NCBI GenBank assembly: GCA_029975165.1
Contig: JARKPR010000089.1
Location: forward strand, 56,883-80,882
Source: Selenomonadales bacterium
GTDB lineage: Bacteria; Bacillota; Negativicutes; Sporomusales; UBA7701
Length of the DNA stretch: 24,000 nt
Reading direction: 5' to 3'
The translations under genes and the position numbers were made by a program. Shown here piece after piece: positions 229-21,869 of this stretch. The first letter of the stretch is position 1; each line of letters starts with the position of its first letter. The notes under the pieces are model-generated. The model had not been told where the DNA came from. It was given only the letters and a program-made list of their open reading frames with translations, and ran no database searches.

Positions 229-1167
229 GTGTCCTTTTCCGCCGAGGTGAAGAACGAACTGGCCCGGGTCGCGGACGAGCAGGACTGCTGCCTGGTCGCC
301 GAGCTGGCCGCCCTGATGCGGATGGGCGGCACGGCGGTCATCGGCGGCAACAATGCGCTGGGGATAAATTTCACGACCGAGAACGCGGCGGTGGCCCGCA
401 AGGTGCTTACGCTGATAAAGCGCGGTTTCGGCCTGGCGACCGAGGTGGTCGTCACCCGCGCCCGCCGCCTGAAGAAGGCCAACTCATATCAGGTGAAGGT
501 ACCGCCGTCGCCGGCGGTGACGGCGGTGCTGGCCGAGCTCGGCGTGCTGCGCGGCGAGATGATAAGCGCCGGCCGGGACATGGCGCTGGCGCGCAAGGGC
601 TGCTGCCGCCGGGCGTACCTGCGGGGCGCTTTTCTCGGCGGCGGCTCGGTGAGCAGGCCGGAGGGGGAATATCATTTAGAGCTGGTGACCGGCAACCACG
701 ACTTTGCCAGGACGCTGGTGCGGCTGATGAAGTCGTTCCGCCTGCCTGCCCGCCTGACGGAGCGCAAGCAGGATTATGTCGTGTATCTGAAGGACGGCGA
801 CGCGATCACCTCGCTGCTGCGCGTCATCGGCGCCCACAACGCCCTGTTCGCGTTCGAGAACGTGCGGGTCGTGAAGGATATGCGCAACCAGGTCAACCGG
901 CTGGTGAACTGCGAGACCGCCAACCTGCAGAAGACGGTGAACGCGGCGGTGCGGCAGGTGGAGAGCATCAGGCTGATCGCCGCCCGTTCGGGACTGGCCA
1001 AGCTGCCGCCCAGCCTTCAGGCCGCGGCCGAGCTGCGCCTCGCCTACCCGGAGGCCACGCTGCAGGAGCTGGTGGACCTGGCGGACGGGCAGGTGGGCAA
1101 GTCGGGCATGAACCATAGGCTGCGCAAGCTGGAAAGGATAGCCCGCGACCTGGAAGGGAAGGAATAG
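229..1167 (+). CDS. whiA: DNA-binding sporulation/cell-division regulator WhiA
   Basis: 312-aa ORF with a GTG start 9 nt after GGAG (216-219). N-terminus MSFSAEVKNELARV and C-terminal HTH-like segment GKSGMNHRLRKLERIA are typical of WhiA. Codon third positions are G/C rich. Confidence 0.9.
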   Translation: MSFSAEVKNELARVADEQDCCLVAELAALMRMGGTAVIGGNNALGINFTTENAAVARKVLTLIKRGFGLATEVVVTRARRLKKANSYQVKVPPSPAVTAVLAELGVLRGEMISAGRDMALARKGCCRRAYLRGAFLGGGSVSRPEGEYHLELVTGNHDFARTLVRLMKSFRLPARLTERKQDYVVYLKDGDAITSLLRVIGAHNALFAFENVRVVKDMRNQVNRLVNCETANLQKTVNAAVRQVESIRLIAARSGLAKLPPSLQAAAELRLAYPEATLQELVDLADGQVGKSGMNHRLRKLERIARDLEGKE

Positions 1168-1923
1168 ATGAAGCTGCTGGTGAGGGGCGCCGCCGTCGCC
1201 GCCCTCGTTATCCTGGCCGCCGCCTGGGCGGTCTGGCCCGCCGCCGGCGTGCCGATCCTGGTTTACCACAAGGTGGGCGACACCGCGGAGGCTTACAGCG
1301 TGCCGCCGGTCGACTTCGAACGGCAGATGCGCTATCTGGCCGACGAGGGCTACACGGCCGTGACGCTGGCCGCTCTCGTCGACCATATGACGGCCGGGAA
1401 GCCGCTGCCGCCGAAGCCGGTGGTGATAACCCTCGACGACGGCTACGCCGATAATTACACGGCGGCGCTGCCCATCCTGAAAAAGTACGGCCTGCGGGCG
1501 ACGGTGTTCGTGGTGACCGATTTTTTGGACGAGCGGCCTTATCTGACGTGGGACGAGGTCAAGGCGTTACGGGCGGCCGGCATTGAGATCGGCTCGCACA
1601 CGCTGCACCACCGCGACCTCACGACGCTGCCGCCGGACGAACGGGCCCGGGATTTGCAGCTGTCCAAGGAAGGGCTGGAGTGGCGGCTGGACGCACCAGT
1701 GCAGTTCCTCGCCTACCCGTTCGGCAGCTACGACGCCGCGACGGAGGCGGCGCTGAAGAAGGCGGGGTATAGAGCGGCGGTGGGCACGGCCGTCGGCCTG
1801 AACAGGCCGGGGGACGACGTGTACGCCTTAAAACGCATCAACATCCCCCGCAGCCGCTGGGGCCTGGGGGAGTTCCGGCTGCGGCTGCTGCGGGCGAATA
1901 TGTACGCGAGACTGGGGATATAG
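1168..1923 (+). CDS. Membrane-anchored or secreted polysaccharide deacetylase (NodB homology domain)
   Basis: ATG immediately follows the whiA stop. Hydrophobic N-terminus (AAVAALVILAAAWAVWPAAG). NodB-type motifs ITLDDGYADNY and GSHTLHH. Confidence 0.85.
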   Translation: MKLLVRGAAVAALVILAAAWAVWPAAGVPILVYHKVGDTAEAYSVPPVDFERQMRYLADEGYTAVTLAALVDHMTAGKPLPPKPVVITLDDGYADNYTAALPILKKYGLRATVFVVTDFLDERPYLTWDEVKALRAAGIEIGSHTLHHRDLTTLPPDERARDLQLSKEGLEWRLDAPVQFLAYPFGSYDAATEAALKKAGYRAAVGTAVGLNRPGDDVYALKRINIPRSRWGLGEFRLRLLRANMYARLGI

Positions 1924-2046: not shown

Positions 2047-3120
2047 ATGACGAAAGGCTATATGATAAGACAGGCCAAAGCCGCGATTGCGGCTGCGGCT
2101 ATGGTTTTGGCCGTCGCCGGCCCGGCCGCGGCCGCCGCCCCGGCGCTCGACGCGCTCAAGCTGCCGGAGTGGGAGGTTACGTCAACTTCCTACGGCGGCA
2201 AGCTGCTGCTGTCCGACAGTCCGGAGATGGTCCACAGCGACGGCATCCTGTACCAGGACACGGTGGCGGGCGACGTGCGCCTGTTCTTCCACCACGTGAA
2301 CGCGACGGCCACGGACAAGCGGCTGGCGGTGCTGGTGGAGAACGCCGGCCCGCAGGCGGCGACGGTGACCGTCCACCAGCACGGCATCGGCGGCCCCGGC
2401 TACGACTGGATGGCGGTGGGCAAGGCGGCCCAGGAGAACTACCTCGCCGGCGGCAACCTGTACACGGTGGAGGTGCCGGCCCGCGGCGCGGCGGCGCTGT
2501 CGCCGGCGCTGCAAAAGGCGGCCGTAAAGCCCAATATGCTGGTGAACGGCATTTTCGACTTCATCGCCGACCGGCCGGTGACGGTCAAGGTGATGATGCT
2601 GCCGCCGGGCGCGGACGAGCGGCGGTTCGCCCTTACGGCGGCCGTGCTGCCGCCGGACGAGCAGCGCCTGCGCGGCACGTTCCACGGCAAGGACCGCATG
2701 CTGGTGCCGGTGAGGATTTATAATCCCCAGACCGACGGGCCGGTGGCGCTGACGCTGGCCGACAACCTGCTCGACCAATACATGGTGGGCGTGGACGCCA
2801 CCGACGGGACGAAGGTGGTCAATTACGGCAATTACGGGGTGGTGTACCGGATGTTCCTGCCGGCCGCCGGCACGGGCAAGACGTCCTACTACCTCAACCC
2901 GCGGGGCGGCGATTATGCCGGCGCTTTAGGGATAAGGTACAAGTACGTGATCGCGCCGCCGGTGCCGACGCCGACGGGCCGGACGGCGTTCGGGCGCGAC
3001 AAGCTGATCGATTTCGCCTATGTGGGGACGTTCGACAGCGCCGAGTCGCTGTGGCTGACGTTCAGCCCGCCGGGGGCGTCTAATTTACCCGTAAAGTTAG
3101 TTATCGTGCCTGAACCGTAA
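2047..3120 (+). CDS. Secreted protein of unknown function (357 aa)
   Basis: GGAGG (2037-2041) lies 5 nt before the ATG. Signal-peptide-like N-terminus (KAAIAAAAMVLAVAGPAAAAAPALD). Coding-type codon bias throughout. I recognise no family motif. Confidence 0.8.
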   Translation: MTKGYMIRQAKAAIAAAAMVLAVAGPAAAAAPALDALKLPEWEVTSTSYGGKLLLSDSPEMVHSDGILYQDTVAGDVRLFFHHVNATATDKRLAVLVENAGPQAATVTVHQHGIGGPGYDWMAVGKAAQENYLAGGNLYTVEVPARGAAALSPALQKAAVKPNMLVNGIFDFIADRPVTVKVMMLPPGADERRFALTAAVLPPDEQRLRGTFHGKDRMLVPVRIYNPQTDGPVALTLADNLLDQYMVGVDATDGTKVVNYGNYGVVYRMFLPAAGTGKTSYYLNPRGGDYAGALGIRYKYVIAPPVPTPTGRTAFGRDKLIDFAYVGTFDSAESLWLTFSPPGASNLPVKLVIVPEP

Positions 3121-3313
3121 TGGTGAGCGGCTGCAGTAAAAGCTCCAGATGCAAGGCGCGCCGGAGGTTGGCGCCACCGTTTCCTCTGCGACAATGTTTA
3201 TATGCGTTGTTTGCACAGTATCGGTGTAACAGCATCGCGCGTACACGGGACGTACGCTGAGGATGGCAACCGAGGAGCAACGCCGCAGATGGGCTTTTAA
3301 TGCAGCCGCCCTG

Positions 3314-3342
3314 TTGTCCGGCTTGCCAATGTGTGGTATCAT
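3314..3342 (+). promoter_or_regulatory. Candidate sigma-A promoter with extended -10 for the SCIFF precursor gene
   Basis: TTGTCC (3314-3319), a 17-nt spacer ending in TGg, then TATCAT (3337-3342), giving a TGnTATCAT extended -10. It lies about 44 nt upstream of the scfA ATG. Confidence 0.55.
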
Positions 3343-3385
3343 AGTCTAAGCGATAGCATACATATCGGCAAGGAGGGAATTTTCG

Positions 3386-3529
3386 ATGGCTAAGCATATC
3401 GTCACCGTGAATAAAGGTTCGCTGCAGAAGACGGTCAAGACGGGCGGCTGCGGGGAATGCCAGGCTTCGTGCCAGTCGGCCTGCAAGACGTCCTGCACCG
3501 TGGGCAATCAGGTCTGCCAGAAGCAGTAA
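3386..3529 (+). CDS. scfA: SCIFF (six cysteines in forty-five residues) ranthipeptide precursor, 47 aa, absent from the supplied ORF track
   Basis: My own translation: MAKHIVTVNKGSLQKTVKTGGCGECQASCQSACKTSCTVGNQVCQKQ. GGAGG (3372-3376) lies 9 nt before the ATG. The core GGCGECQxSCQSACKTSCTVxNQ is the hallmark of the SCIFF family. A radical-SAM/SPASM gene follows directly. Confidence 0.9.
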   Translation: MAKHIVTVNKGSLQKTVKTGGCGECQASCQSACKTSCTVGNQVCQKQ

Positions 3530-3536
3530 CAGCGGC

Positions 3537-3567
3537 GCCCTCGCCTAAGAGCGGGGGCCTTTTACTT
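3537..3567 (+). terminator. Hairpin plus short U-tract between precursor and maturase (candidate partial terminator or attenuator)
   Basis: GCCCTCGC (3537-3544) pairs with GCGGGGGC (3551-3558): 8 bp including one G-U pair, with loop CTAAGA. CTTTTACTT follows. Confidence 0.4.
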
Positions 3568-3577
3568 GGAGGAAATA

Positions 3578-4936
3578 ATGGACATACATAGGTTTGAACA
3601 GAACGGCATGCACATCGTCCTCGACGTCAACAGCGGGGCGGTGCATGTCGTCGATAAGCCGGCATACGAGGCGCTGGCGGTGTGGGACGGCCAAAACGAC
3701 GCCGCGGTGCTGGCGGCGCTCGGCGGGGCTTACGGCGAGGCGGCGGCGGCCGAGGTGCTGGCCGAGCTGCGCGCGCTTATGGACCAGGGGCTGTTGTTCT
3801 CGCCGCCGCCGGCGGTGCCGGCGGCTCTGGGCGACGCGCCGCTGGTCAAGTCGCTGTGCCTGCATGTCGCCCACGACTGCAACCTGCGCTGCGGCTACTG
3901 CTTCGCCGGCACGGGCGATTTCGGCCACGACCGCGGCCTGATGCCGCCGGAGGTCGCCGAGCGGGCGGTGGACTTCATCATCGCCGGCAGCGGCCGCAGG
4001 AAGCATTGCGAGCTCGATTTCTTCGGCGGCGAACCGCTGCTGAACATGGAAACGGTCCGCCGCGCGGTGGCGCATGTGCGGCGGCGGGAGGCCGAGACCG
4101 GCAAGGTGTTCAAGCTGACGCTGACGACCAACGCCGTGCTGCTGGACGAGGCGACGCTCGCTTACCTCAATGCCGAGAATATCAGCCTGGTGCTGAGCCT
4201 CGACGGGCGGCGGGAGGTGCACGACAACATGCGGCCGTACGCCGACGGCAGCGGCAGCTGGCAGGACGCGCTGGCGGGCATCCGCCGGGCGGTGGCTTCG
4301 CGCGGCGGGCAGAACTACTACCTGCGCGGCACGTATACCGCCCACAACCTCGATTTCGCCGCCGATGTGCTGGCCATGGCCGACCTCGGCTTCGCGGCGC
4401 TGTCGGTCGAGCCGGTGATCGCCAAGGACGGCGGTTACGCCCTGCGGCCCGAGCATCTGCCGGCTTTAGCTGCCGGGTACGATGCCCTGGCGGCCGAATA
4501 TCTGGCCCGCCGCCGGGCCGGCCGGCCGTTCGAGTTCTTCCACTTCAACCTCAATCTCGACAACGGGCCGTGCGTGGCCAAGCGGCTAGCCGGCTGCGGC
4601 GCCGGCCACGAGTATTTCGCCGTCACCCCGGCGGGCGACCTGTACCCCTGCCACCAGTTCGTCGGCCGCGACGAGTATCTTGTCGGCAATATTTTCGACG
4701 GCATAAATAAACCCGCTATGGTCCAGAGGTTCCGCCGGGCCCACGCGCTGGCCAAGCCGGCCTGCCGCGGCTGCTGGGCCCGCTTCTACTGCAGCGGCGG
4801 CTGCCACGCCAACGCCCAGTTGTTCGGCGGCGACCTGGCCGTGCCGTACGAGCTGGGCTGCGAGCTGCAGAAGAAGCGGCTGGAGTGCGCGCTGATGATC
4901 CAGGCCAGCCTGGCGCTGGAGAAGGGCGGCTGCTAG
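3578..4936 (+). CDS. scfB: Radical SAM/SPASM-domain SCIFF maturase (thioether-forming, CteB-like)
   Basis: CX3CX2C motif (HDCNLRCGYCFAG). C-terminal SPASM cysteines (GCGAGHEYFAVTPAGDLYPC ... CRGCWARFYCSGGCHANA). GGAGG (3568-3572) lies 5 nt before ATG 3578. The track start TTG 3566 overlaps that SD, so 3578 is preferred. Confidence 0.9.
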   Translation: MDIHRFEQNGMHIVLDVNSGAVHVVDKPAYEALAVWDGQNDAAVLAALGGAYGEAAAAEVLAELRALMDQGLLFSPPPAVPAALGDAPLVKSLCLHVAHDCNLRCGYCFAGTGDFGHDRGLMPPEVAERAVDFIIAGSGRRKHCELDFFGGEPLLNMETVRRAVAHVRRREAETGKVFKLTLTTNAVLLDEATLAYLNAENISLVLSLDGRREVHDNMRPYADGSGSWQDALAGIRRAVASRGGQNYYLRGTYTAHNLDFAADVLAMADLGFAALSVEPVIAKDGGYALRPEHLPALAAGYDALAAEYLARRRAGRPFEFFHFNLNLDNGPCVAKRLAGCGAGHEYFAVTPAGDLYPCHQFVGRDEYLVGNIFDGINKPAMVQRFRRAHALAKPACRGCWARFYCSGGCHANAQLFGGDLAVPYELGCELQKKRLECALMIQASLALEKGGC

Positions 4937-4937
4937 T

Positions 4938-6494
<1,557 letters not shown>

Positions 6495-6553
6495 AAGGGC
6501 AGCCGTCGGCGTCTTCGCCCGCCAGGGGCGCGCCGTGCCCAGCGCTTCCCGGG

Positions 6554-6582
6554 TTGCGAAAAATCTGAATACATGGTAATCT
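6554..6582 (+). promoter_or_regulatory. Candidate promoter placing the transcription start at or next to the hypF ATG
   Basis: TTGCGA (6554-6559), a 17-nt spacer ending in TGg, then TAATCT (6577-6582). The hypF ATG at 6589 is 7 nt downstream of the -10. No SD-like purine run precedes it. Confidence 0.35.
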
Positions 6583-6588
6583 CGGATT

Positions 6589-8838
6589 ATGGAACGTTTG
6601 CGGATCGAGATCACCGGCATAGTACAGGGGGTGGGGTTCCGCCCCTTTGTTCATAATCTGGCCGGCCGCCATAGTATCGGCGGCTGGGTGGCCAACGACG
6701 GTCGCGGGGTGGTCATCGAGGCCGAGGGGGAGCAGGCGGCGCTGGCCGCTTTTTTGGCCGCCCTGCGGGCCGAGGCGCCGCCGCTGGCGGTCGTGGGCGC
6801 GGTGACGGCAAGGCCGCTGCCGCCGGCGGGGGAACGGGGCTTCGCCATCAGGACGAGCGCCGCGGCCGACGCCCGGACGGCGCTGATCTCGCCCGACGTG
6901 GCGACCTGCCCGGACTGCCGGGCGGAGATCGCCGACCCGCTCGACCGGCGCTACGGCTACCCGTTCACCAACTGCACGAACTGCGGGCCGCGCTACACGA
7001 TCGTAAACGATGTGCCCTACGACCGCGAGCGCACGACCATGGCCGCGTTCACGATGTGCCCCGCCTGCCGGGCCGAGTACGACGACCCGGCGAACCGGCG
7101 GTTCCACGCCCAGCCGAACGCCTGCCCGGCGTGCGGCCCGGCGTACCGCCTGCTGGACAGGGACGGACGGCCGCTGGCCGGCGACCCGCTGGCGGAGGCC
7201 CGCCGGCTGGTGGCCGCCGGGAGCGTGGCGGCTATCAAGGGCCTCGGCGGCTTCCACCTGGCGTGTAACGCGTTAGACGCGGCGGCGGTGGCGGCGCTCA
7301 GGGCCCGCAAGGTCCGCGAGGACAAGCCGTTCGCCGTCATGGCCGGCAGCCTGGCGGCGGCGAAGGCGCGCTGCCTGGTGGACAAGGCCGAGGAGGAGCT
7401 GCTGGCCGGGCCGGCGCGGCCGATCGTGCTGCTTACCAAGGGGCCGGGCTACGACCTGGCGGCGGCGGTCGCCCCCGGCAACCCCTGCGTGGGGATGATG
7501 CTGCCGTACGCCCCTGTCCATTGGCTGCTGCTGGCGCCGGACGACGTGTGGGTGATGACGAGCGGCAATACGAGCGACGAGCCGATCGCCTACGAGGACG
7601 GCGACGCCCTTGCCCGGCTGGCCGGCATCGCCGACTTTTTCCTCGTCCACAACCGGCCGATCAACTGCCGGGCCGACGATTCGGTGGCCCGCGTCTTCGG
7701 CGGGAAGCCGTACCTGCTGCGCCGCAGCCGCGGGTTCGCGCCCGCGCCGCTGCGGCTGAAGCGCCCCGGGCCGGCCGTGCTGGCCTGCGGCGGCGAGCTG
7801 AAGAGCGCCTTCTGCCTGACCAGGGACGACCAGGCGTTCATGAGCGCCCATGTGGGCGACTTGGAGAATATGGCCACATACGGCGCCTATACGGCGGCGA
7901 TCGAGCACTATGAGAAACTGTTCGCCGTGCGGCCGGAGCTGGTGGCCCACGACCTTCACCCCGAGTACCTGGCGACGAAGTACGCTATGGACTGCGGCCT
8001 GCCGCGCATCGGCGTCCAGCACCACCACGCCCACATCGCCGCGGTGCTGGCCGAGCACGGCGCGGACGGCCCGGTGATTGGCGCGGCCTTCGACGGCACG
8101 GGCTACGGCGACGATGGCCGCCTGTGGGGCGGGGAGTTCCTGCTCGCCGACCTCAAGGGCTACACCCGCCTGGCCCATCTGGAGTATATGCCCCTGCCCG
8201 GCGGCGCGGCGGCGATCAGGGAGCCGTGGCGGCTGGCGGCCTGGGTGCTGCACGACTTGTACGGGGCGGATTTTGTCAATAAGGATATCCCCTTCGTCCG
8301 CAGCCTGCCCGCCGGCTGGGAGCTGCTGCTGGCCGCGGCCGCCAAGGGGCTGAACGCCCCGCTGGCGTCGGGGGCCGGCCGGCTGTTCGACGCCTGCGCC
8401 GCCCTGCTGGGGGTGCGGGGGAAGATAAACTACGAGGGGCAGGCGGCCGTGGAGCTGGAGCTGGCCGCCGCCGGCCGCAAGGGCCGGGTGCTGCCGTATG
8501 CGATAACGGCCGGCGAGCCGGCGCGGTTGGATTTCCGCCCCGCCTTCGCGGCCATGGTCGCCGCCCTGGAACAGGGGGCGGCCCCGGCCGAACTTGCGGC
8601 CGACTTCCACGCCACCCTGGCCGACGCGGTCGCGGCGACGGTGCGCCGCCTGGCGGCCGCGAGCGGCGTGCGCACGGTGGCGTTGAGCGGCGGGGTTTTC
8701 CAGAACGTTACCCTGCTGGGCGCGGTTGTTGCCCGGCTGGAACAAGACTTCACCGTGCTGCTCCATCGCAGCGTGCCGCCGAACGACGGCGGCCTGGCGC
8801 TGGGGCAGGCGGCGGTGGCCATCGAAAGGAGCAGATGA
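6589..8838 (+). CDS. hypF: [NiFe]-hydrogenase maturation carbamoyltransferase HypF
   Basis: 749 aa. Acylphosphatase-like N-terminus (GIVQGVGFRPFVHNLA). Two zinc-finger pairs (CPDCRAE...CTNCGPRY and CPACRAEY...CPACGP). YrdC-like and Kae1-like C-terminal regions. Confidence 0.95.
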   Translation: MERLRIEITGIVQGVGFRPFVHNLAGRHSIGGWVANDGRGVVIEAEGEQAALAAFLAALRAEAPPLAVVGAVTARPLPPAGERGFAIRTSAAADARTALISPDVATCPDCRAEIADPLDRRYGYPFTNCTNCGPRYTIVNDVPYDRERTTMAAFTMCPACRAEYDDPANRRFHAQPNACPACGPAYRLLDRDGRPLAGDPLAEARRLVAAGSVAAIKGLGGFHLACNALDAAAVAALRARKVREDKPFAVMAGSLAAAKARCLVDKAEEELLAGPARPIVLLTKGPGYDLAAAVAPGNPCVGMMLPYAPVHWLLLAPDDVWVMTSGNTSDEPIAYEDGDALARLAGIADFFLVHNRPINCRADDSVARVFGGKPYLLRRSRGFAPAPLRLKRPGPAVLACGGELKSAFCLTRDDQAFMSAHVGDLENMATYGAYTAAIEHYEKLFAVRPELVAHDLHPEYLATKYAMDCGLPRIGVQHHHAHIAAVLAEHGADGPVIGAAFDGTGYGDDGRLWGGEFLLADLKGYTRLAHLEYMPLPGGAAAIREPWRLAAWVLHDLYGADFVNKDIPFVRSLPAGWELLLAAAAKGLNAPLASGAGRLFDACAALLGVRGKINYEGQAAVELELAAAGRKGRVLPYAITAGEPARLDFRPAFAAMVAALEQGAAPAELAADFHATLADAVAATVRRLAAASGVRTVALSGGVFQNVTLLGAVVARLEQDFTVLLHRSVPPNDGGLALGQAAVAIERSR

Positions 8839-17194: not shown

Positions 17195-17884
17195 TTGGAT
17201 TTTAGTTTTGCCGGCACATACATGCCGCTGTTTTTCAATGGCATAAAACTGACGCTGATCATTTCCGTGCTTTCGATTATCCTGGGAACGCTCGTCGGGA
17301 TTGTCGTTTACCTGTTCAAAGTCTCGAACCTGTCGCTCGGGAAGGCATACCCGCTGCGCATCGTCGCCAACATCTTCATCGAAATCATGCGCGGCACGCC
17401 GGTGCTGCTGCAGATCCTGGTCGCCTACGTGCTGGTGAGCATGAGCCCGAACTCGTCCGCGCTGCCGAGCAACATGGTGGCGATAATAGCCAGCATCGGC
17501 GCCATCAGCCTCAACGCCAGCGTGTATATCGCCGAAATCATCCGCGCCGGCATCCAGTCGGTGCCGCGGGGGCAGATGGAAGCGGCCCGCAGCCTCGGCA
17601 TGCCGCATTATCTGGCGATGAAGGAAATCATCATGCCCCAGGCGATCAAGAACATCCTGCCGGCGATCGGCAACGAATTCGTCGCCGTGATAAAGGGCTC
17701 GTCGATGGCCTATGTCCTGGGCATCGCCGAGCTGACCTTCACCGCCAAGGTCGTCCAGGGCGCCACCTACAAGGGACTGGAGCCGCTTTTGATCTCGGCC
17801 GTGTTCTATCTGGTCCTGACCTACTCGCTGGGCCGGTTTATCAGCTGGGCGGAAAGGCGGATGAAAGCCAGTGATTCGCATTAA
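17195..17884 (+). CDS. Amino-acid ABC transporter permease
   Basis: 229 aa, polytopic. EAA-type loop ([10 protein letters not shown]). HisM/GlnP-like sequence ([14 protein letters not shown]). TTG start after GGGGGA. Confidence 0.9.
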
Positions 17885-18593
17885 CAATCTCCGCAAGGAT
17901 TTCGGCGACAACCGCGTCCTGCGCGGCATCACCAACCGGATAAACAAGGGCGAGGTCGTCGTGGTCATCGGCCCGTCCGGCTCGGGCAAGTCGACCTTCC
18001 TGCGCTGCCTGAACCTGCTGGAGAAGCCGACGGCGGGGGAAATAATCTTCGAGGGCCAAACCATCACCGCCCCCAACGTCGATATCAACAGGGTCCGCAC
18101 CAAAATCGGCATGGTGTTCCAGTCGTTCAACCTTTTCCCCCATAAGACGGCCGTCGAGAACATCATGATTTCGCCGGTAATGGTCAAGAAGCTGCCCAAG
18201 GAAGAGGCGTACGCCAAGGCCGTCGCCCTGCTCAACAGGGTCGGCCTGGCGGAGAAGGAAAACGCCTATCCGTCCTCGCTGTCCGGCGGCCAGCAGCAGC
18301 GGGTCGCCATCGCCCGGGCGCTGGCGATGGAGCCGGACGTGATGCTGTTCGACGAGCCGACCTCGGCCCTGGACCCCGAGATGGTGGGCGAAGTGCTCGC
18401 CGTCATGAAGCAGCTCGCCACCGACGGCATGACCATGGTTATCGTCAGCCACGAAATGGGCTTCGCCCGCGAGGTGGGGGACCGGATCATGTTCATGGAC
18501 GAGGGGCTGATCGTGGAAGAGGGCACCCCCGAGCAGGTGTTCAGCAATCCCCAGAACCCCCGGACGCGCGATTTTCTCTCGAAGGTACTGTAA
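17871..18593 (+). CDS. Amino-acid ABC transporter ATP-binding protein (GlnQ-like)
   Basis: Walker [10 protein letters not shown], signature [15 protein letters not shown], Walker [15 protein letters not shown] start overlaps the permease 3' end. Confidence 0.95.
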
Positions 18594-18607
18594 AAGCGCC
18601 GCGCCAT

Positions 18608-18645
18608 AAAAGCATCGGCAACCGGAAGGTTGCCGATGCTTTTTT
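18608..18645 (+). terminator. Rho-independent terminator after the ABC importer operon
   Basis: AAAAGCATCGGCAACC, loop GGAA, GGTTGCCGATGCTTTT. Long perfect stem followed by a T run. Confidence 0.85.
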
Positions 18646-18794
18646 ATGCCCGGCCGGGCGAAGGAGCGGCCGGCCGGTATATAAAACAAGCCTGTGGGAA
18701 AATTACCTATTGTGGCGCGCAGTGCGCCCCGCGGCGTTGTGTCCGGGGGAGGCGGCGGCGGGCGCCGAAACCTTTTTGAGGAGGATTTCGCCCT

Positions 18795-20177
18795 ATGGTA
18801 ACATTGACATCTGCCCACTGGCTGTTCCTGTTCTGGGTGCTGGTCGTAATCGTGGTCATGGGTCTCAGGAAGGACCCGCTCATCCCCTGTATCATCGGCC
18901 TGCTGACCGTGGGCTGGCTGGTGAAGGGGAGCATGGTGGGCGCCTTTACCACTGTTTTCAATTCGCTGATCGTGGCCGGCAACGAGTTCTGGGGCATCAT
19001 CGTCGTCATTTCCCTGATCGTCTCCCTGTCCAGACTGCTGGGCGAGACGGGGGCCGACTACCTGGTGATGAGCCCGGCGGCCAAGCTGATGGTCAACGCC
19101 GACGTCGCCTTCTGGGTGGTGGGCTTCGCGATGCTGATCGCTTCGTGGTTCTTCTGGCCGTCGCCGGCCACCGCCCTGGTGGGCGCCATCCTCTTCCCGG
19201 TGGCGGTGCGGGCCGGCCTGCCGGCCATGGGCGTGGCCGTAGCGATGAACCTCTTCGGCCACGGCATCGGCCTGTCCACCGACTACGTCATCCAGGGGGC
19301 GCCGACCATCACCGCCAAGGCGGCCGGCTTCGCCGACCCCAGCCCGGTGATCGCCGCCAGCGTGCCGCTGGCCATCACCATGGGCCTGGTGACGACCATC
19401 GCCGCTTATGTATTGATCAAGAAGGATATCCGGGTCAACGCCGAAGCCCACAGGCTGGAGCGCGAAAAGCTGGCGGCCGCCGTGCCGGCCCAGCGCGACC
19501 TCGACTGGGTGTCGTGGTTCCTGGCCATCGTCACTCCGCTGGCTTTCGCCCTCGACGTGGTGGCGATGCTGGCCTTCAAGCTGCGCGGCGGCGACGCCAC
19601 CGCCCTGCTCGGCGCCACCGCCGTCGTCATCCTGGCCGTGGGCTGTCTGCTCAAGTTCGGTTGGGACGGGCTGGAGAAGATCACCGATTACATCCGCGAC
19701 GGTTTTATGTTCGGCATCAAGATCTTCGCCCCGGTCGTGGTCATCGGCGGCTTCTTCTTCATGGGCAAGGGCGACCTGGCCAAGTCCATTTTCGAGCTGA
19801 AGACGGCCACCGGCTTCCTGGAGGACTTCGGCGTGTTCCTGTCGCAGACGGTGCCGCTGAACAAGGTGTTCGTCGCCCTGGTCAGCCTGGCGACCGGCAT
19901 CATCGTCGGCCTCGACGGCTCGGGGTTCTCGCCGCTGCCGCTCGTGGGCAGCGTGGCGGCGACGTTCGAGAAGGCCATCGCCGTGGACAAGGCGACGCTG
20001 GCCGCTCTCGGCCAGATGGCCGGCGTGTGGACGGGCGGCGGCACGATCATCCCCTGGGGCCTCATCCCGGTGGCGGCGATCACCGGCGTCAACCCGATCG
20101 AGCTGGCGCGGCGCAATTTCTTCCCGGTTGTGTTGGGGTTCGCGGCGACGACGATCGTGGCGATATTTCTGCTGTAG
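18795..20177 (+). CDS. Polytopic membrane permease, copy 1 (ion-transporter-superfamily-like, family unresolved)
   Basis: 460 aa, hydrophobic throughout apart from one charged central loop (KKDIRVNAEAHRLEREKLAAAVPAQRDLD). GAGGAGG SD. Gly-rich re-entrant-like segments (IVGLDGSGFSPLPLVG, GVWTGGGTIIPWG). Coding-type codon bias. Confidence 0.85.
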   Translation: MVTLTSAHWLFLFWVLVVIVVMGLRKDPLIPCIIGLLTVGWLVKGSMVGAFTTVFNSLIVAGNEFWGIIVVISLIVSLSRLLGETGADYLVMSPAAKLMVNADVAFWVVGFAMLIASWFFWPSPATALVGAILFPVAVRAGLPAMGVAVAMNLFGHGIGLSTDYVIQGAPTITAKAAGFADPSPVIAASVPLAITMGLVTTIAAYVLIKKDIRVNAEAHRLEREKLAAAVPAQRDLDWVSWFLAIVTPLAFALDVVAMLAFKLRGGDATALLGATAVVILAVGCLLKFGWDGLEKITDYIRDGFMFGIKIFAPVVVIGGFFFMGKGDLAKSIFELKTATGFLEDFGVFLSQTVPLNKVFVALVSLATGIIVGLDGSGFSPLPLVGSVAATFEKAIAVDKATLAALGQMAGVWTGGGTIIPWGLIPVAAITGVNPIELARRNFFPVVLGFAATTIVAIFLL

Positions 20178-20230
20178 TACCCGGGGACTGGCGATAAGGG
20201 CGGCCAGTCCGGTTAAATATGGGGGTAAAG

Positions 20231-20266
20231 ACGCGGCGGCGCAGAGGCGCCGCGTTCTTTTTTTTG
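20231..20266 (+). terminator. Rho-independent terminator after permease copy 1
   Basis: ACGCGGCG (20231-20238) pairs with CGCCGCGT (20248-20255), followed by TCTTTTTTTT. Confidence 0.6.
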
Positions 20267-20339
20267 CGGGGGGTGGGCTGGCGGGCGAAAATAAATATCG
20301 CCGCGGGGGAACGGCAGGCAGGGAAAAGGTTGGAAGACG

Positions 20340-20371
20340 GCGAATATTCGCAAAGCTCATCAATGATGAGC
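20340..20371. promoter_or_regulatory. Two adjacent perfect palindromes upstream of permease copy 2 (candidate operator sites)
   Basis: GCGAATATTCGC (20340-20351), and GCTCATCAATGATGAGC (20355-20371, 8-bp arms around a central A). No equivalent exists upstream of copy 1. Confidence 0.35.
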
Positions 20372-20483
20372 AGCTTATGATTGGCGAAATGGAGGTGGCC
20401 AGCCGCCGCAGGAGAACAGACCGGTCCCTGTCGTAGTTTCGCGGAAAATTAGGATTGCCAAATAAAAGGAGGAATTTTCCTAT

Positions 20484-21869
20484 ATGACGGTAGCACTGAC
20501 CGCGGCTCACTGGTTGTTCCTGTTCTGGGTAATGGTCGTTATCGTGGTCATGGGTCTGCGCAAGGACCCGCTCATCCCCTGTATCCTGGGGCTGCTGTCC
20601 GTCGGCTGGCTGGTGAAAGGGAGCGTGGTGGGCGCTTTCACCACCGTTTTCAATTCGCTGATCGTGGCCGGCAACGAGTTTTGGGGCATCATCGTCGTCA
20701 TTTCCCTGATCGTCTCCCTGTCCAAGCTGCTGGGCGAGACGGGGGCCGACTATTTGGTGATGAGCCCGGCGGCCAAGCTGATGGTCAACGCCGACGTCGC
20801 CTTCTGGGTGGTGGGCTTCGCGATGTTGATCGCTTCGTGGTTCTTCTGGCCGTCGCCGGCCACCGCCCTGGTGGGCGCCATCCTCTTCCCGGTGGCGGTG
20901 CGGGCCGGCCTGCCGGCCATCGGCGCGGCCATGGCGATGAACCTGTTCGGCCACGGTATCGCTTTGTCGACCGACTATATCATCCAGGGGGCGCCGACCA
21001 TCACCGCCAAGGCGGCCGGCTTCGCCGATCCCGGCCCGGTTCTGGCCGCCAGCGTGCCGCTCATCATCACTATGGGCCTGGTAACGACCATAGCGGCGTA
21101 CATTATAATCAAGAAGGATATGCGGGCCAACGGGGCCGCCCACAAGCTGGAGCGCGAGGCGCTGATGAGCGCCGCCGAGACCCGGCGCGAGCTCGACTGG
21201 GTGTCGTGGTTCCTGGCGATCCTCACCCCGGTGGCCTTCGGCCTCGACGTGGTGGCGATGCTGACCCTCAAGCTGCGCGGCGGCGACGCCACCGCCCTGC
21301 TCGGCGCCACCGCCGTCGTCATCCTGGCCGTCGGCTGTCTGCTGAAGTTCGGCTGGGAGGGCCTGGAGAAGATCACCGATTACACCCGCGACGGCTTTAT
21401 GTTCGGCATCAAGATCTTCGCCCCGGTCATCGTAATCGGCGGGTTCTTCTTCATGGGCAAGGGCGACCTGGCCAAGGCTATTTTCGAGATGAAGAACGCC
21501 ACCGGTTTCCTCGAGGATTTCGGCGTGGCGCTCGCCCAGACGGTGCCGCTCAACAAGCCGTTCGTCGCCCTGGTGACGCTGGCGACCGGCATCATCGTCG
21601 GTCTCGACGGTTCGGGCTTTTCGCCGCTGCCGCTCGTGGGCAGCGTGGCGGCCACGTTCGACAAGGCGATCGCCCTCGACAAGGCGACGCTGGCCGCTCT
21701 CGGTCAGATAGCCGGCGTGTGGACGGGCGGCGGCACGATCATCCCCTGGGGCCTCATCCCGGTGGCGGCCATCACCGGCGTCAACCCGATCGAGCTGGCC
21801 CGCCGCAACTTCGTGCCGGTGGTGCTGGGGTTCGTAGCCACGACGATCGTGGCCATCATCCTTCTATAG
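20484..21869 (+). CDS. Polytopic membrane permease, copy 2 (paralogue of 18795-20177)
   Basis: 461 aa, colinear with copy 1. Roughly nine residues in ten are identical by eye. AAGGAGG SD upstream. Confidence 0.85.
   Translation: MTVALTAAHWLFLFWVMVVIVVMGLRKDPLIPCILGLLSVGWLVKGSVVGAFTTVFNSLIVAGNEFWGIIVVISLIVSLSKLLGETGADYLVMSPAAKLMVNADVAFWVVGFAMLIASWFFWPSPATALVGAILFPVAVRAGLPAIGAAMAMNLFGHGIALSTDYIIQGAPTITAKAAGFADPGPVLAASVPLIITMGLVTTIAAYIIIKKDMRANGAAHKLEREALMSAAETRRELDWVSWFLAILTPVAFGLDVVAMLTLKLRGGDATALLGATAVVILAVGCLLKFGWEGLEKITDYTRDGFMFGIKIFAPVIVIGGFFFMGKGDLAKAIFEMKNATGFLEDFGVALAQTVPLNKPFVALVTLATGIIVGLDGSGFSPLPLVGSVAATFDKAIALDKATLAALGQIAGVWTGGGTIIPWGLIPVAAITGVNPIELARRNFVPVVLGFVATTIVAIILL

Follow-up and report, generated by a model that had tools for sequence, protein, structure and literature searches.

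Within a 24,000-nt stretch of contig JARKPR010000089.1 from a Selenomonadales bacterium (assembly GCA_029975165.1; hereafter the window), two adjacent genes, scfA and scfB, encode a 47-aa six-cysteine SCIFF precursor and its radical-SAM/SPASM maturase. We put the probability that the pair represents the standard SCIFF ranthipeptide operon, here in an uncultured high-GC member of the Negativicutes (Selenomonadales/Sporomusaceae-like), at roughly 0.93. An earlier note, written from the sequence without database searches, had named the pair and placed it in a high-GC genome, and the G+C content of the window is 65.5%. The unit is an ordinary, already-known two-gene SCIFF system and is not new. 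The SCIFF/ScfB system was defined in 2011, its enzymes were characterised between 2016 and 2019, and it has since been reclassified as ranthipeptide (PMC8326336, PMC10114670).

Translation of 3386..3529 yields MAKHIVTVNKGSLQKTVKTGGCGECQASCQSACKTSCTVGNQVCQKQ, an exact match to the peptide quoted in the earlier note, with its six cysteines in the spacing C-X2-C-X3-C-X3-C-X3-C-X6-C. The profile hidden Markov model (HMM) searches proposed with that note were run, and the peptide scored 83.6 bits against TIGR03973 (cut-off 50, E-value 6.4e-24). The Pfam SCIFF family PF13165 gave 85.7 bits against a cut-off of 27. A radical-SAM maturase gene within 500 bp has been used as a criterion for such precursors (PMC5300114), and scfB begins 48 nt past the scfA stop (gap 3530..3577), not 49 nt as first counted. 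In 10 comparisons with relatives, the codon differences in scfA were 173 synonymous versus 47 non-synonymous, and 110 of the 119 base differences in core codons 20-46 fell at codon position 3. Judged by these substitutions, scfA is under strong coding constraint. A PDB sequence search with the peptide returned only a chance cysteine-rich match, epoxyqueuosine reductase.

The 452-aa product of scfB carries both motifs attributed to it beforehand, namely the radical-SAM motif C101-X3-C105-X2-C108 and a complete SPASM set (C340-X12-G-X4-C358; C396-X2-C399-X5-C405-X3-C409; C428/C437). It scored 560.2 bits against TIGR03974 (cut-off 425, E-value 3.4e-168), and the SPASM models TIGR04085 and PF13186 gave 67.9 bits (cut-off 27) and 26.1 bits (cut-off 21.5), respectively. 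The Pfam domains found in ScfB are Radical_SAM, Fer4_12 and SPASM. The protein stayed below the cut-offs of PapB, QhpD and all other peptide-maturase models, and did not reach that of the exception model NF040492, ‘not_ScfB’ (483.5 bits versus 855). The best solved relative is CteB (PDB 5WGG/5WHY), with an E-value of 4.6e-146, residues 3-443 aligning to 7-450 and an identity of 48.5% over 441 columns. ScfB keeps 13 of the 14 CteB cysteines of the aligned region, all those of the radical-SAM and SPASM motifs included (C94, C101, C105, C108, C332, C340, C358, C396, C399, C405, C409, C428 and C437). The only unshared cysteine positions are C144, a Leu in CteB, and S227, a Cys in CteB. The N-terminus of CteB, an RRE in its crystal structure (PMC6231123), is matched in the alignment by residues 3-90 of ScfB.

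A scan of one genome per species gave 80 loci encoding ScfB relatives (numbered here with the prefix L where one has to be named). The closest, at 84-85% identity, come from Selenomonadales/Bacillota metagenome-assembled genomes (MAGs), followed by Sporomusaceae, Dendrosporobacter, Pelosinus and Selenomonadaceae, and then by Clostridia at 41-53%. In all 80 the maturase gene is directly preceded by a SCIFF gene, intact in 79 and frameshifted in one. Cysteine spacing alone recovered 75 of these genes and an HMM the other five, which are four five-cysteine variants in which Leu or Ile occupies the fifth Cys position and the frameshifted copy from a Pelosinus MAG (L006 5565..5771). The five-cysteine variants (L038 371..646, L071 4786..5262, L076 5262..5483 and L077 5630..5905) come from Desulfovirgula, Moorellaceae, Peptococcaceae and a Clostridia MAG, and retain the fourth Cys and both Thr residues. 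In these four loci the fifth Cys is dispensable. The segment C-Q-S-A-C-K-T-S-x-T-V, which includes the fourth Cys and both Thr, is invariant in all intact precursors; the leader is variable except for its K-H-I motif.

The exact ScfA and ScfB sequences are both already public, on an 81-kb contig from NCBI and Logan sources. Two independent sequencing runs contain scfA, scfB and a following ABC-F gene in identical order, and there the 47-aa gene is called and flagged as PF13165. The small gene had been described as unlisted, which is accurate for the open reading frame (ORF) track used at that stage, whose length cut-off it falls below, but does not extend to the public assemblies. The 90% cluster of the peptide holds 131 members, of which the named ones are called ‘six-cysteine ranthipeptide SCIFF’ (Selenomonas, Mitsuokella, Thermincola), and Negativicutes SCIFF copies carry names in RefSeq already. 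The family's curators have remarked that the small SCIFF gene is often missed, yet easy to recognise, and that each ScfA has a ScfB partner (PMC5300114). The present case has little value outside correct annotation. Length cut-offs easily miss SCIFF genes (the curators' own point, PMC5300114), and the window is an example of such a gene being recovered by a reader with the sequence only. The comparative by-products, being the invariant donor Cys and two candidate acceptor Thr residues, the dispensable fifth Cys and a recurrent hairpin described below, may help work on SCIFF peptides and leave the identity of the system unchanged.

Upstream of scfA a promoter-like site combines TTGTCC, a 17-nt spacer and a TG-preceded TATCAT. 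It is the sole hit of a consensus scan of 2900..5200, in which shuffled sequences give 0.4. The strong Shine-Dalgarno sequence and extended -10 element claimed in the earlier note were thus both located (Table 1). Between the window and four related species (L001-L004), both promoter elements (-35 hexamer and TG-extended -10) and the Shine-Dalgarno sequence show little or no variation, CAAGGAGGG being conserved in all five, and no alignment extends 5' of the -35. Scanned in full against Rfam at gathering thresholds, the window gave no match, and hence no known RNA element near scfA.

Between the two genes stands a GC-rich hairpin, GCCCTCGC-CTAAGA-GCGGGGGC, with a terminator-like run of T residues behind it. 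A simple detector of our own, set to a stem of 6 or more pairs (4 or more of them G-C), a loop of 3-8 and 4 or more T among the 8 bases that follow, found a hairpin in the first 90 nt behind the scfA stop at 49 of 72 loci, versus 1.2 in shuffled sequences and 4 in a control stretch upstream of scfA. Several of the misses are obvious terminators in which the T-run had been absorbed into the stem. The hairpin recurs across Negativicutes and Clostridia, and because its sequence varies by lineage it is the architecture that is conserved and not the sequence. Its recurrence after scfA suggests read-through control of the maturase gene. A sigma-70-type extended -10 promoter would drive scfA, with a strong ribosome-binding site. 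With no more than 19 nt between the hairpin and the scfB ATG, and no other promoter-like site detected, scfB is probably expressed by read-through past the hairpin, together with the abutting ABC-F gene. The hairpin would then act as a leaky terminator or as an mRNA-stabilising 3' end, and precursor mRNA would probably exceed maturase mRNA, as is familiar in other operons for peptide modification.

Two reviews and the SkfB paper supplied the residue assignments for the cross-link. In CteA, 18 leader residues precede the core, the reactive Cys at core position 14 is Cys32, the fourth in the peptide, and the first Cys is a ligand of the open iron of auxiliary cluster I (PMC6231123, PMC8326336). 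Owing to its extra Ala2, the peptide of the window has a 19-residue leader, its first Cys at position 22, the donor at Cys33 and Thr38 five residues on. In vitro assays of Tte1186 and CteB gave a Cys32-Thr37 link, whereas the co-expression in E. coli that established the S-C-gamma chemistry placed it at Cys32-Thr34 (PMC8326336, PMC8172795). The latter pair corresponds to Cys33-Thr35 here, and Thr35 and Thr38 are both present. The proposal that Cys33 and Thr38 match the CteA pair is therefore right in its mapping, since Ala2 shifts the numbering by one, but is only one of two options, as the two reviews place the co-expression link at the residue equivalent to Thr35. The expected product is a single thioether with a mass change of -2 Da, from Cys33 to either Thr38 or Thr35. 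Going by the homologous pairs CteB/CteA and Tte1186/Tte1186a, ScfB would bind the KHI-containing leader as a beta-strand through its N-terminal domain, and the CX3CX2C cluster would cleave SAM to a 5'-deoxyadenosyl radical that abstracts hydrogen from the Thr side chain. Cys33, probably held at the open site of auxiliary cluster I, would then form the S-C-gamma thioether.

Several points weigh against the operon reading, or at least against parts of it. In the GC-rich window taken alone, the stability of the hairpin is unexceptional (z -0.56), terminator-like sites number 2 versus 1.8 expected, the U-run is short (four U's and then an A), and the count across loci depends on our own simple detector and on mononucleotide shuffles. 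The chemistry is drawn wholly from homologues about 48% identical, the evidence in the window itself being at gene level, and the acceptor Thr is disputed between the in vitro and co-expression results cited above. On the side of the genes, a chance ORF, or a dead relic next to an orphan maturase, would have the small size of scfA and nothing else in its favour. This possibility is refuted by the TIGR03973 score, by the conserved promoter and Shine-Dalgarno sequence and by the predominance of synonymous codon changes, and the maturase also lies below the cut-off of the orphan ‘not_ScfB’ model, so that next to no weight can be given to it. The single operon could be questioned in another manner, if the hairpin were a complete terminator and scfB and the ABC-F gene were transcribed from a separate promoter hidden within scfA. 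Its 7 G-C pairs would allow for this, and in some relatives (Pelosinus, for example) the spacer between scfA and scfB is 190-270 nt, leaving room for a promoter. In the window, however, the 19 nt before the scfB ATG, the failure of the scan to find a second promoter-like site and the same short U-run make separate transcription unlikely, and a leaky or mRNA-stabilising hairpin within one operon is preferred.

Because a role is assigned to only one of the six cysteines, the natural product may hold further cross-links, and in the fullest version it would carry several thioethers, up to one per Cys as in freyrasin, in place of the single Cys33-Thr link. Such a product is compatible with the invariance of cysteines 1-4 and 6 across two classes of Firmicutes, and the reviews leave open both the active form and the fate of the remaining cysteines (PMC8326336). 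Yet a single link was all that the two characterised SCIFF enzymes produced in vitro and in E. coli (PMC8326336, PMC8172795); moreover, the four variant loci do without the fifth Cys, and the core lacks the repeated Cys-X3-Asp motif of the freyrasin type. We consider a multiply linked peptide unlikely, though less so than the complete terminator. Far less credible is a sactipeptide with an S-C-alpha link, as was first proposed for SCIFF. Tte1186a and CteA were originally assigned such a link, and one review keeps that view (PMC10114670), but isotope labelling in the CteA/CteB co-expression gave a shift of -2 Da and not -3 Da, which points to C-gamma (PMC8172795), and the NCBIfam family name is now ranthipeptide.

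When set beside named systems, scfA-scfB most closely resembles CteA/CteB (thermocellin) of Clostridium thermocellum. Both have the precursor gene followed by the maturase gene, the core GGCGECQxSCQSACKTSCTV and the leader KHI motif are common to the two, and the enzymes align end to end. They differ in the moderate identity of the enzymes given above, in the leader of the window peptide, which is one residue longer, and in the host, which is a diderm member of the Negativicutes with 65% G+C and not a Clostridium; the window copy is moreover known from its genes alone. Tte1186a/Tte1186 of Caldanaerobacter subterraneus belong to the same family and are likened to the window pair through TIGR03973/TIGR03974 membership only. 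In Tte1186a the fourth Cys was joined in vitro to the Thr five residues downstream (PMC8326336). Freyrasin PapA/PapB of Paenibacillus polymyxa falls in the same broad radical-SAM/SPASM ranthipeptide clade, and ScfB scores 245 bits on NF047865. This is below the cut-off of 340, however, and PapB makes six Cys-X3-Asp S-C-beta links on a repetitive core. QhpD, the maturase of quinohemoprotein amine dehydrogenase, is related and makes non-alpha thioethers (ScfB 228.7 bits full-length on TIGR03906), but ScfB is short of the cut-off of 453 and the QhpD substrate is a protein subunit instead of a small leader-bearing peptide. The orphan maturases of NF040492 are very similar in sequence, from which ScfB differs in falling short of their cut-off and in having a cognate SCIFF gene immediately upstream.

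Table 1. Coordinates of scfA-scfB, their control elements and other genes of the window (positions are those of the window)
Feature	Position	Strand	Basis or remark
scfA, 47-aa SCIFF precursor	3386..3529	+	ATG start; translation, HMM, codon pattern
scfA leader, residues 1-19 (predicted)	3386..3442	+	inferred from CteA (PMC6231123)
scfA core, residues 20-47 (predicted)	3443..3526	+	Cys22, 25, 29, 33, 37, 44; Thr35, Thr38; boundary inferred from CteA
-35 hexamer TTGTCC, scfA promoter	3314..3319	+	consensus scan; invariant in window and L001-L004
Extended -10 TGgTATCAT, scfA promoter	3334..3342	+	identical in L001-L003; TGcTATTAT in L004
Shine-Dalgarno AAGGAGGG for scfA	3370..3377	+	8 nt before ATG
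GC-rich hairpin (8 pairs, 7 G-C; 3537..3558) then CTTTTACTTG	3537..3568	+	terminator-like
Shine-Dalgarno GGAGG for scfB	3568..3572	+	5 nt before ATG
scfB, 452-aa radical-SAM/SPASM SCIFF maturase	3578..4936	+	ATG; HMM, PDB match
scfB N-terminal peptide-binding region (predicted)	~residues 1-85	+	homology to CteB
scfB CX3CX2C, codons 101-108	3878..3901	+	C101, C105, C108
scfB SPASM cysteines, residues 332-437	4571..4888	+	alignment to CteB
ABC-F ATPase	4938..6494	+	1 nt after scfB stop; not counted in the SCIFF system
WhiA	229..1167	+	family scan
Polysaccharide deacetylase	1168..1923	+	family scan
357-aa secreted protein	2047..3120	+	signal-peptide-like N-terminus
HypF	6589..8838	+	family scan; followed by HypD and a HypE-like protein
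Further genes: sigma-54, TetR-like regulator, two M20 amidohydrolases, amino-acid ABC importer, two unannotated membrane proteins, ROK regulator		+	

The physiological role of SCIFF had been called still unknown in the earlier note. This holds insofar as the available evidence is indirect, but a signalling role has been proposed. In Clostridium beijerinckii, disruption of the pair lowered sporulation gene expression and raised agr expression, from which a role in quorum sensing was put forward (Chen 2020, as cited in PMC8102284 and PMC8326336). Most likely the peptide serves regulation or signalling and is not an antibiotic, in keeping with a core that hardly varies across two classes of Firmicutes. 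As had been observed, no dedicated protease or exporter adjoins scfA-scfB in the window, and leader removal and export, if they occur, would rely on unlinked functions.

The gene downstream of scfB was examined as a possible partner. Its product reaches 381.4 bits on the NCBIfam model for ‘ribosomal protection-like ABC-F’ (cut-off 380), its best plasmid-borne relatives are 58-64% identical, and the gene is probably co-transcribed with scfAB. A search within 6 kb found no ABC-F gene at any of the 80 related loci, and hypF directly follows scfB in the closest relatives and in Pelosinus. A conserved 38-nt motif, GGTTGCGAAAAATCTGAATACATGGTAATCTCGGATTA, at 6552..6589 (+) immediately precedes hypF in L001-L004 as well as here. 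Its position in the window, behind the ABC-F gene and not ahead of it, marks that gene as a clean lineage-specific insertion separating scfB from the control region of hypF, and the junction is confirmed in two independent assemblies. The motif itself reads TTGCGA, a 17-nt spacer and TGgTAATCT, and is probably the hypF promoter; it was not called by the consensus scan and had no Rfam match. If the ABC-F protein were a self-protection factor, the mature SCIFF peptide would be implied to act on the ribosome. This is very unlikely because the closest relatives, which have no ABC-F gene at scfAB, make the same core peptide, and a functional link between the ABC-F gene and the SCIFF pair was rejected in view of its absence from the 80 loci and of the position of hypF. 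The coupling of the ABC-F gene to scfB looks like an accident of insertion.

The setting of the pair between a secreted orphan protein and an ABC-F gene, as originally described, consequently needs qualification on both sides. The ABC-F gene does adjoin scfB, though as a recent lineage-specific arrival, and the upstream 357-aa protein does have a signal-peptide-like N-terminus but is no orphan: its family is conserved in Negativicutes and counts at least 968 homologues. A Pfam domain is absent from all of these homologues, and some are named ‘copper amine oxidase’ by NCBI. For the window protein no Pfam or NCBIfam family and no PDB sequence relative was found. Its AlphaFold model (predicted local distance difference test score, pLDDT, 85.7) has a signal helix followed by beta-sandwich domains, and Foldseek searches with this model gave weak matches with template modelling (TM) scores of about 0.2. 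The protein was considered as the missing protease or exporter and rejected, there being no sign of a peptidase or transporter in the family searches or the model. Among the Negativicutes, 23 loci share the gene order WhiA, deacetylase, 357-aa protein, scfA, scfB. The 357-aa protein is absent from the Clostridia loci, and in several Pelosinus genomes its gene lies 1-2.5 kb from scfA or is not found within 6 kb. Because the family is confined to Negativicutes loci, its linkage to scfA is read as inherited synteny.

The space between the 357-aa gene and the scfA promoter contains an intergenic element (~3138..3300, +) with conserved ends, AAAGCTCCAGATGCAAGGCGC...GAGGAGCAACGCCGCAGATGGG. It is present as a single copy in the window, and the same element recurs in a related MAG between scfB and hypF (L002 7446..7556). 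It may be a small mobile or repeated element.

All recognised genes of the window are on the + strand. A 1100-aa ORF on the opposite strand (17841..21143, -) was rejected as a high-GC shadow ORF; it is rich in Arg, His, Asp and Gly, has no family match, and runs antisense to a securely identified ABC ATPase gene and two membrane-protein genes. The latter two genes come after the two M20 amidohydrolases and the amino-acid ABC importer, and encode tandem 460-aa polytopic membrane proteins (18795..20177 and 20484..21869, +) that are 89% identical. Neither has a Pfam or NCBIfam match even at E<0.1. Their family has more than 5,000 homologues, the best 120 of which are 71-92% identical, mostly from Negativicutes, without a Pfam domain and mostly named ‘hypothetical protein’. 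The AlphaFold model (pLDDT 73.9) matches elevator-type carriers of the Ion-Transporter superfamily (INDY/DASS, TRAP DctM, ArsB, YdaH) with TM scores of 0.45-0.62, and the two proteins are, going by this model, members of a widespread predicted transporter family without a curated model.

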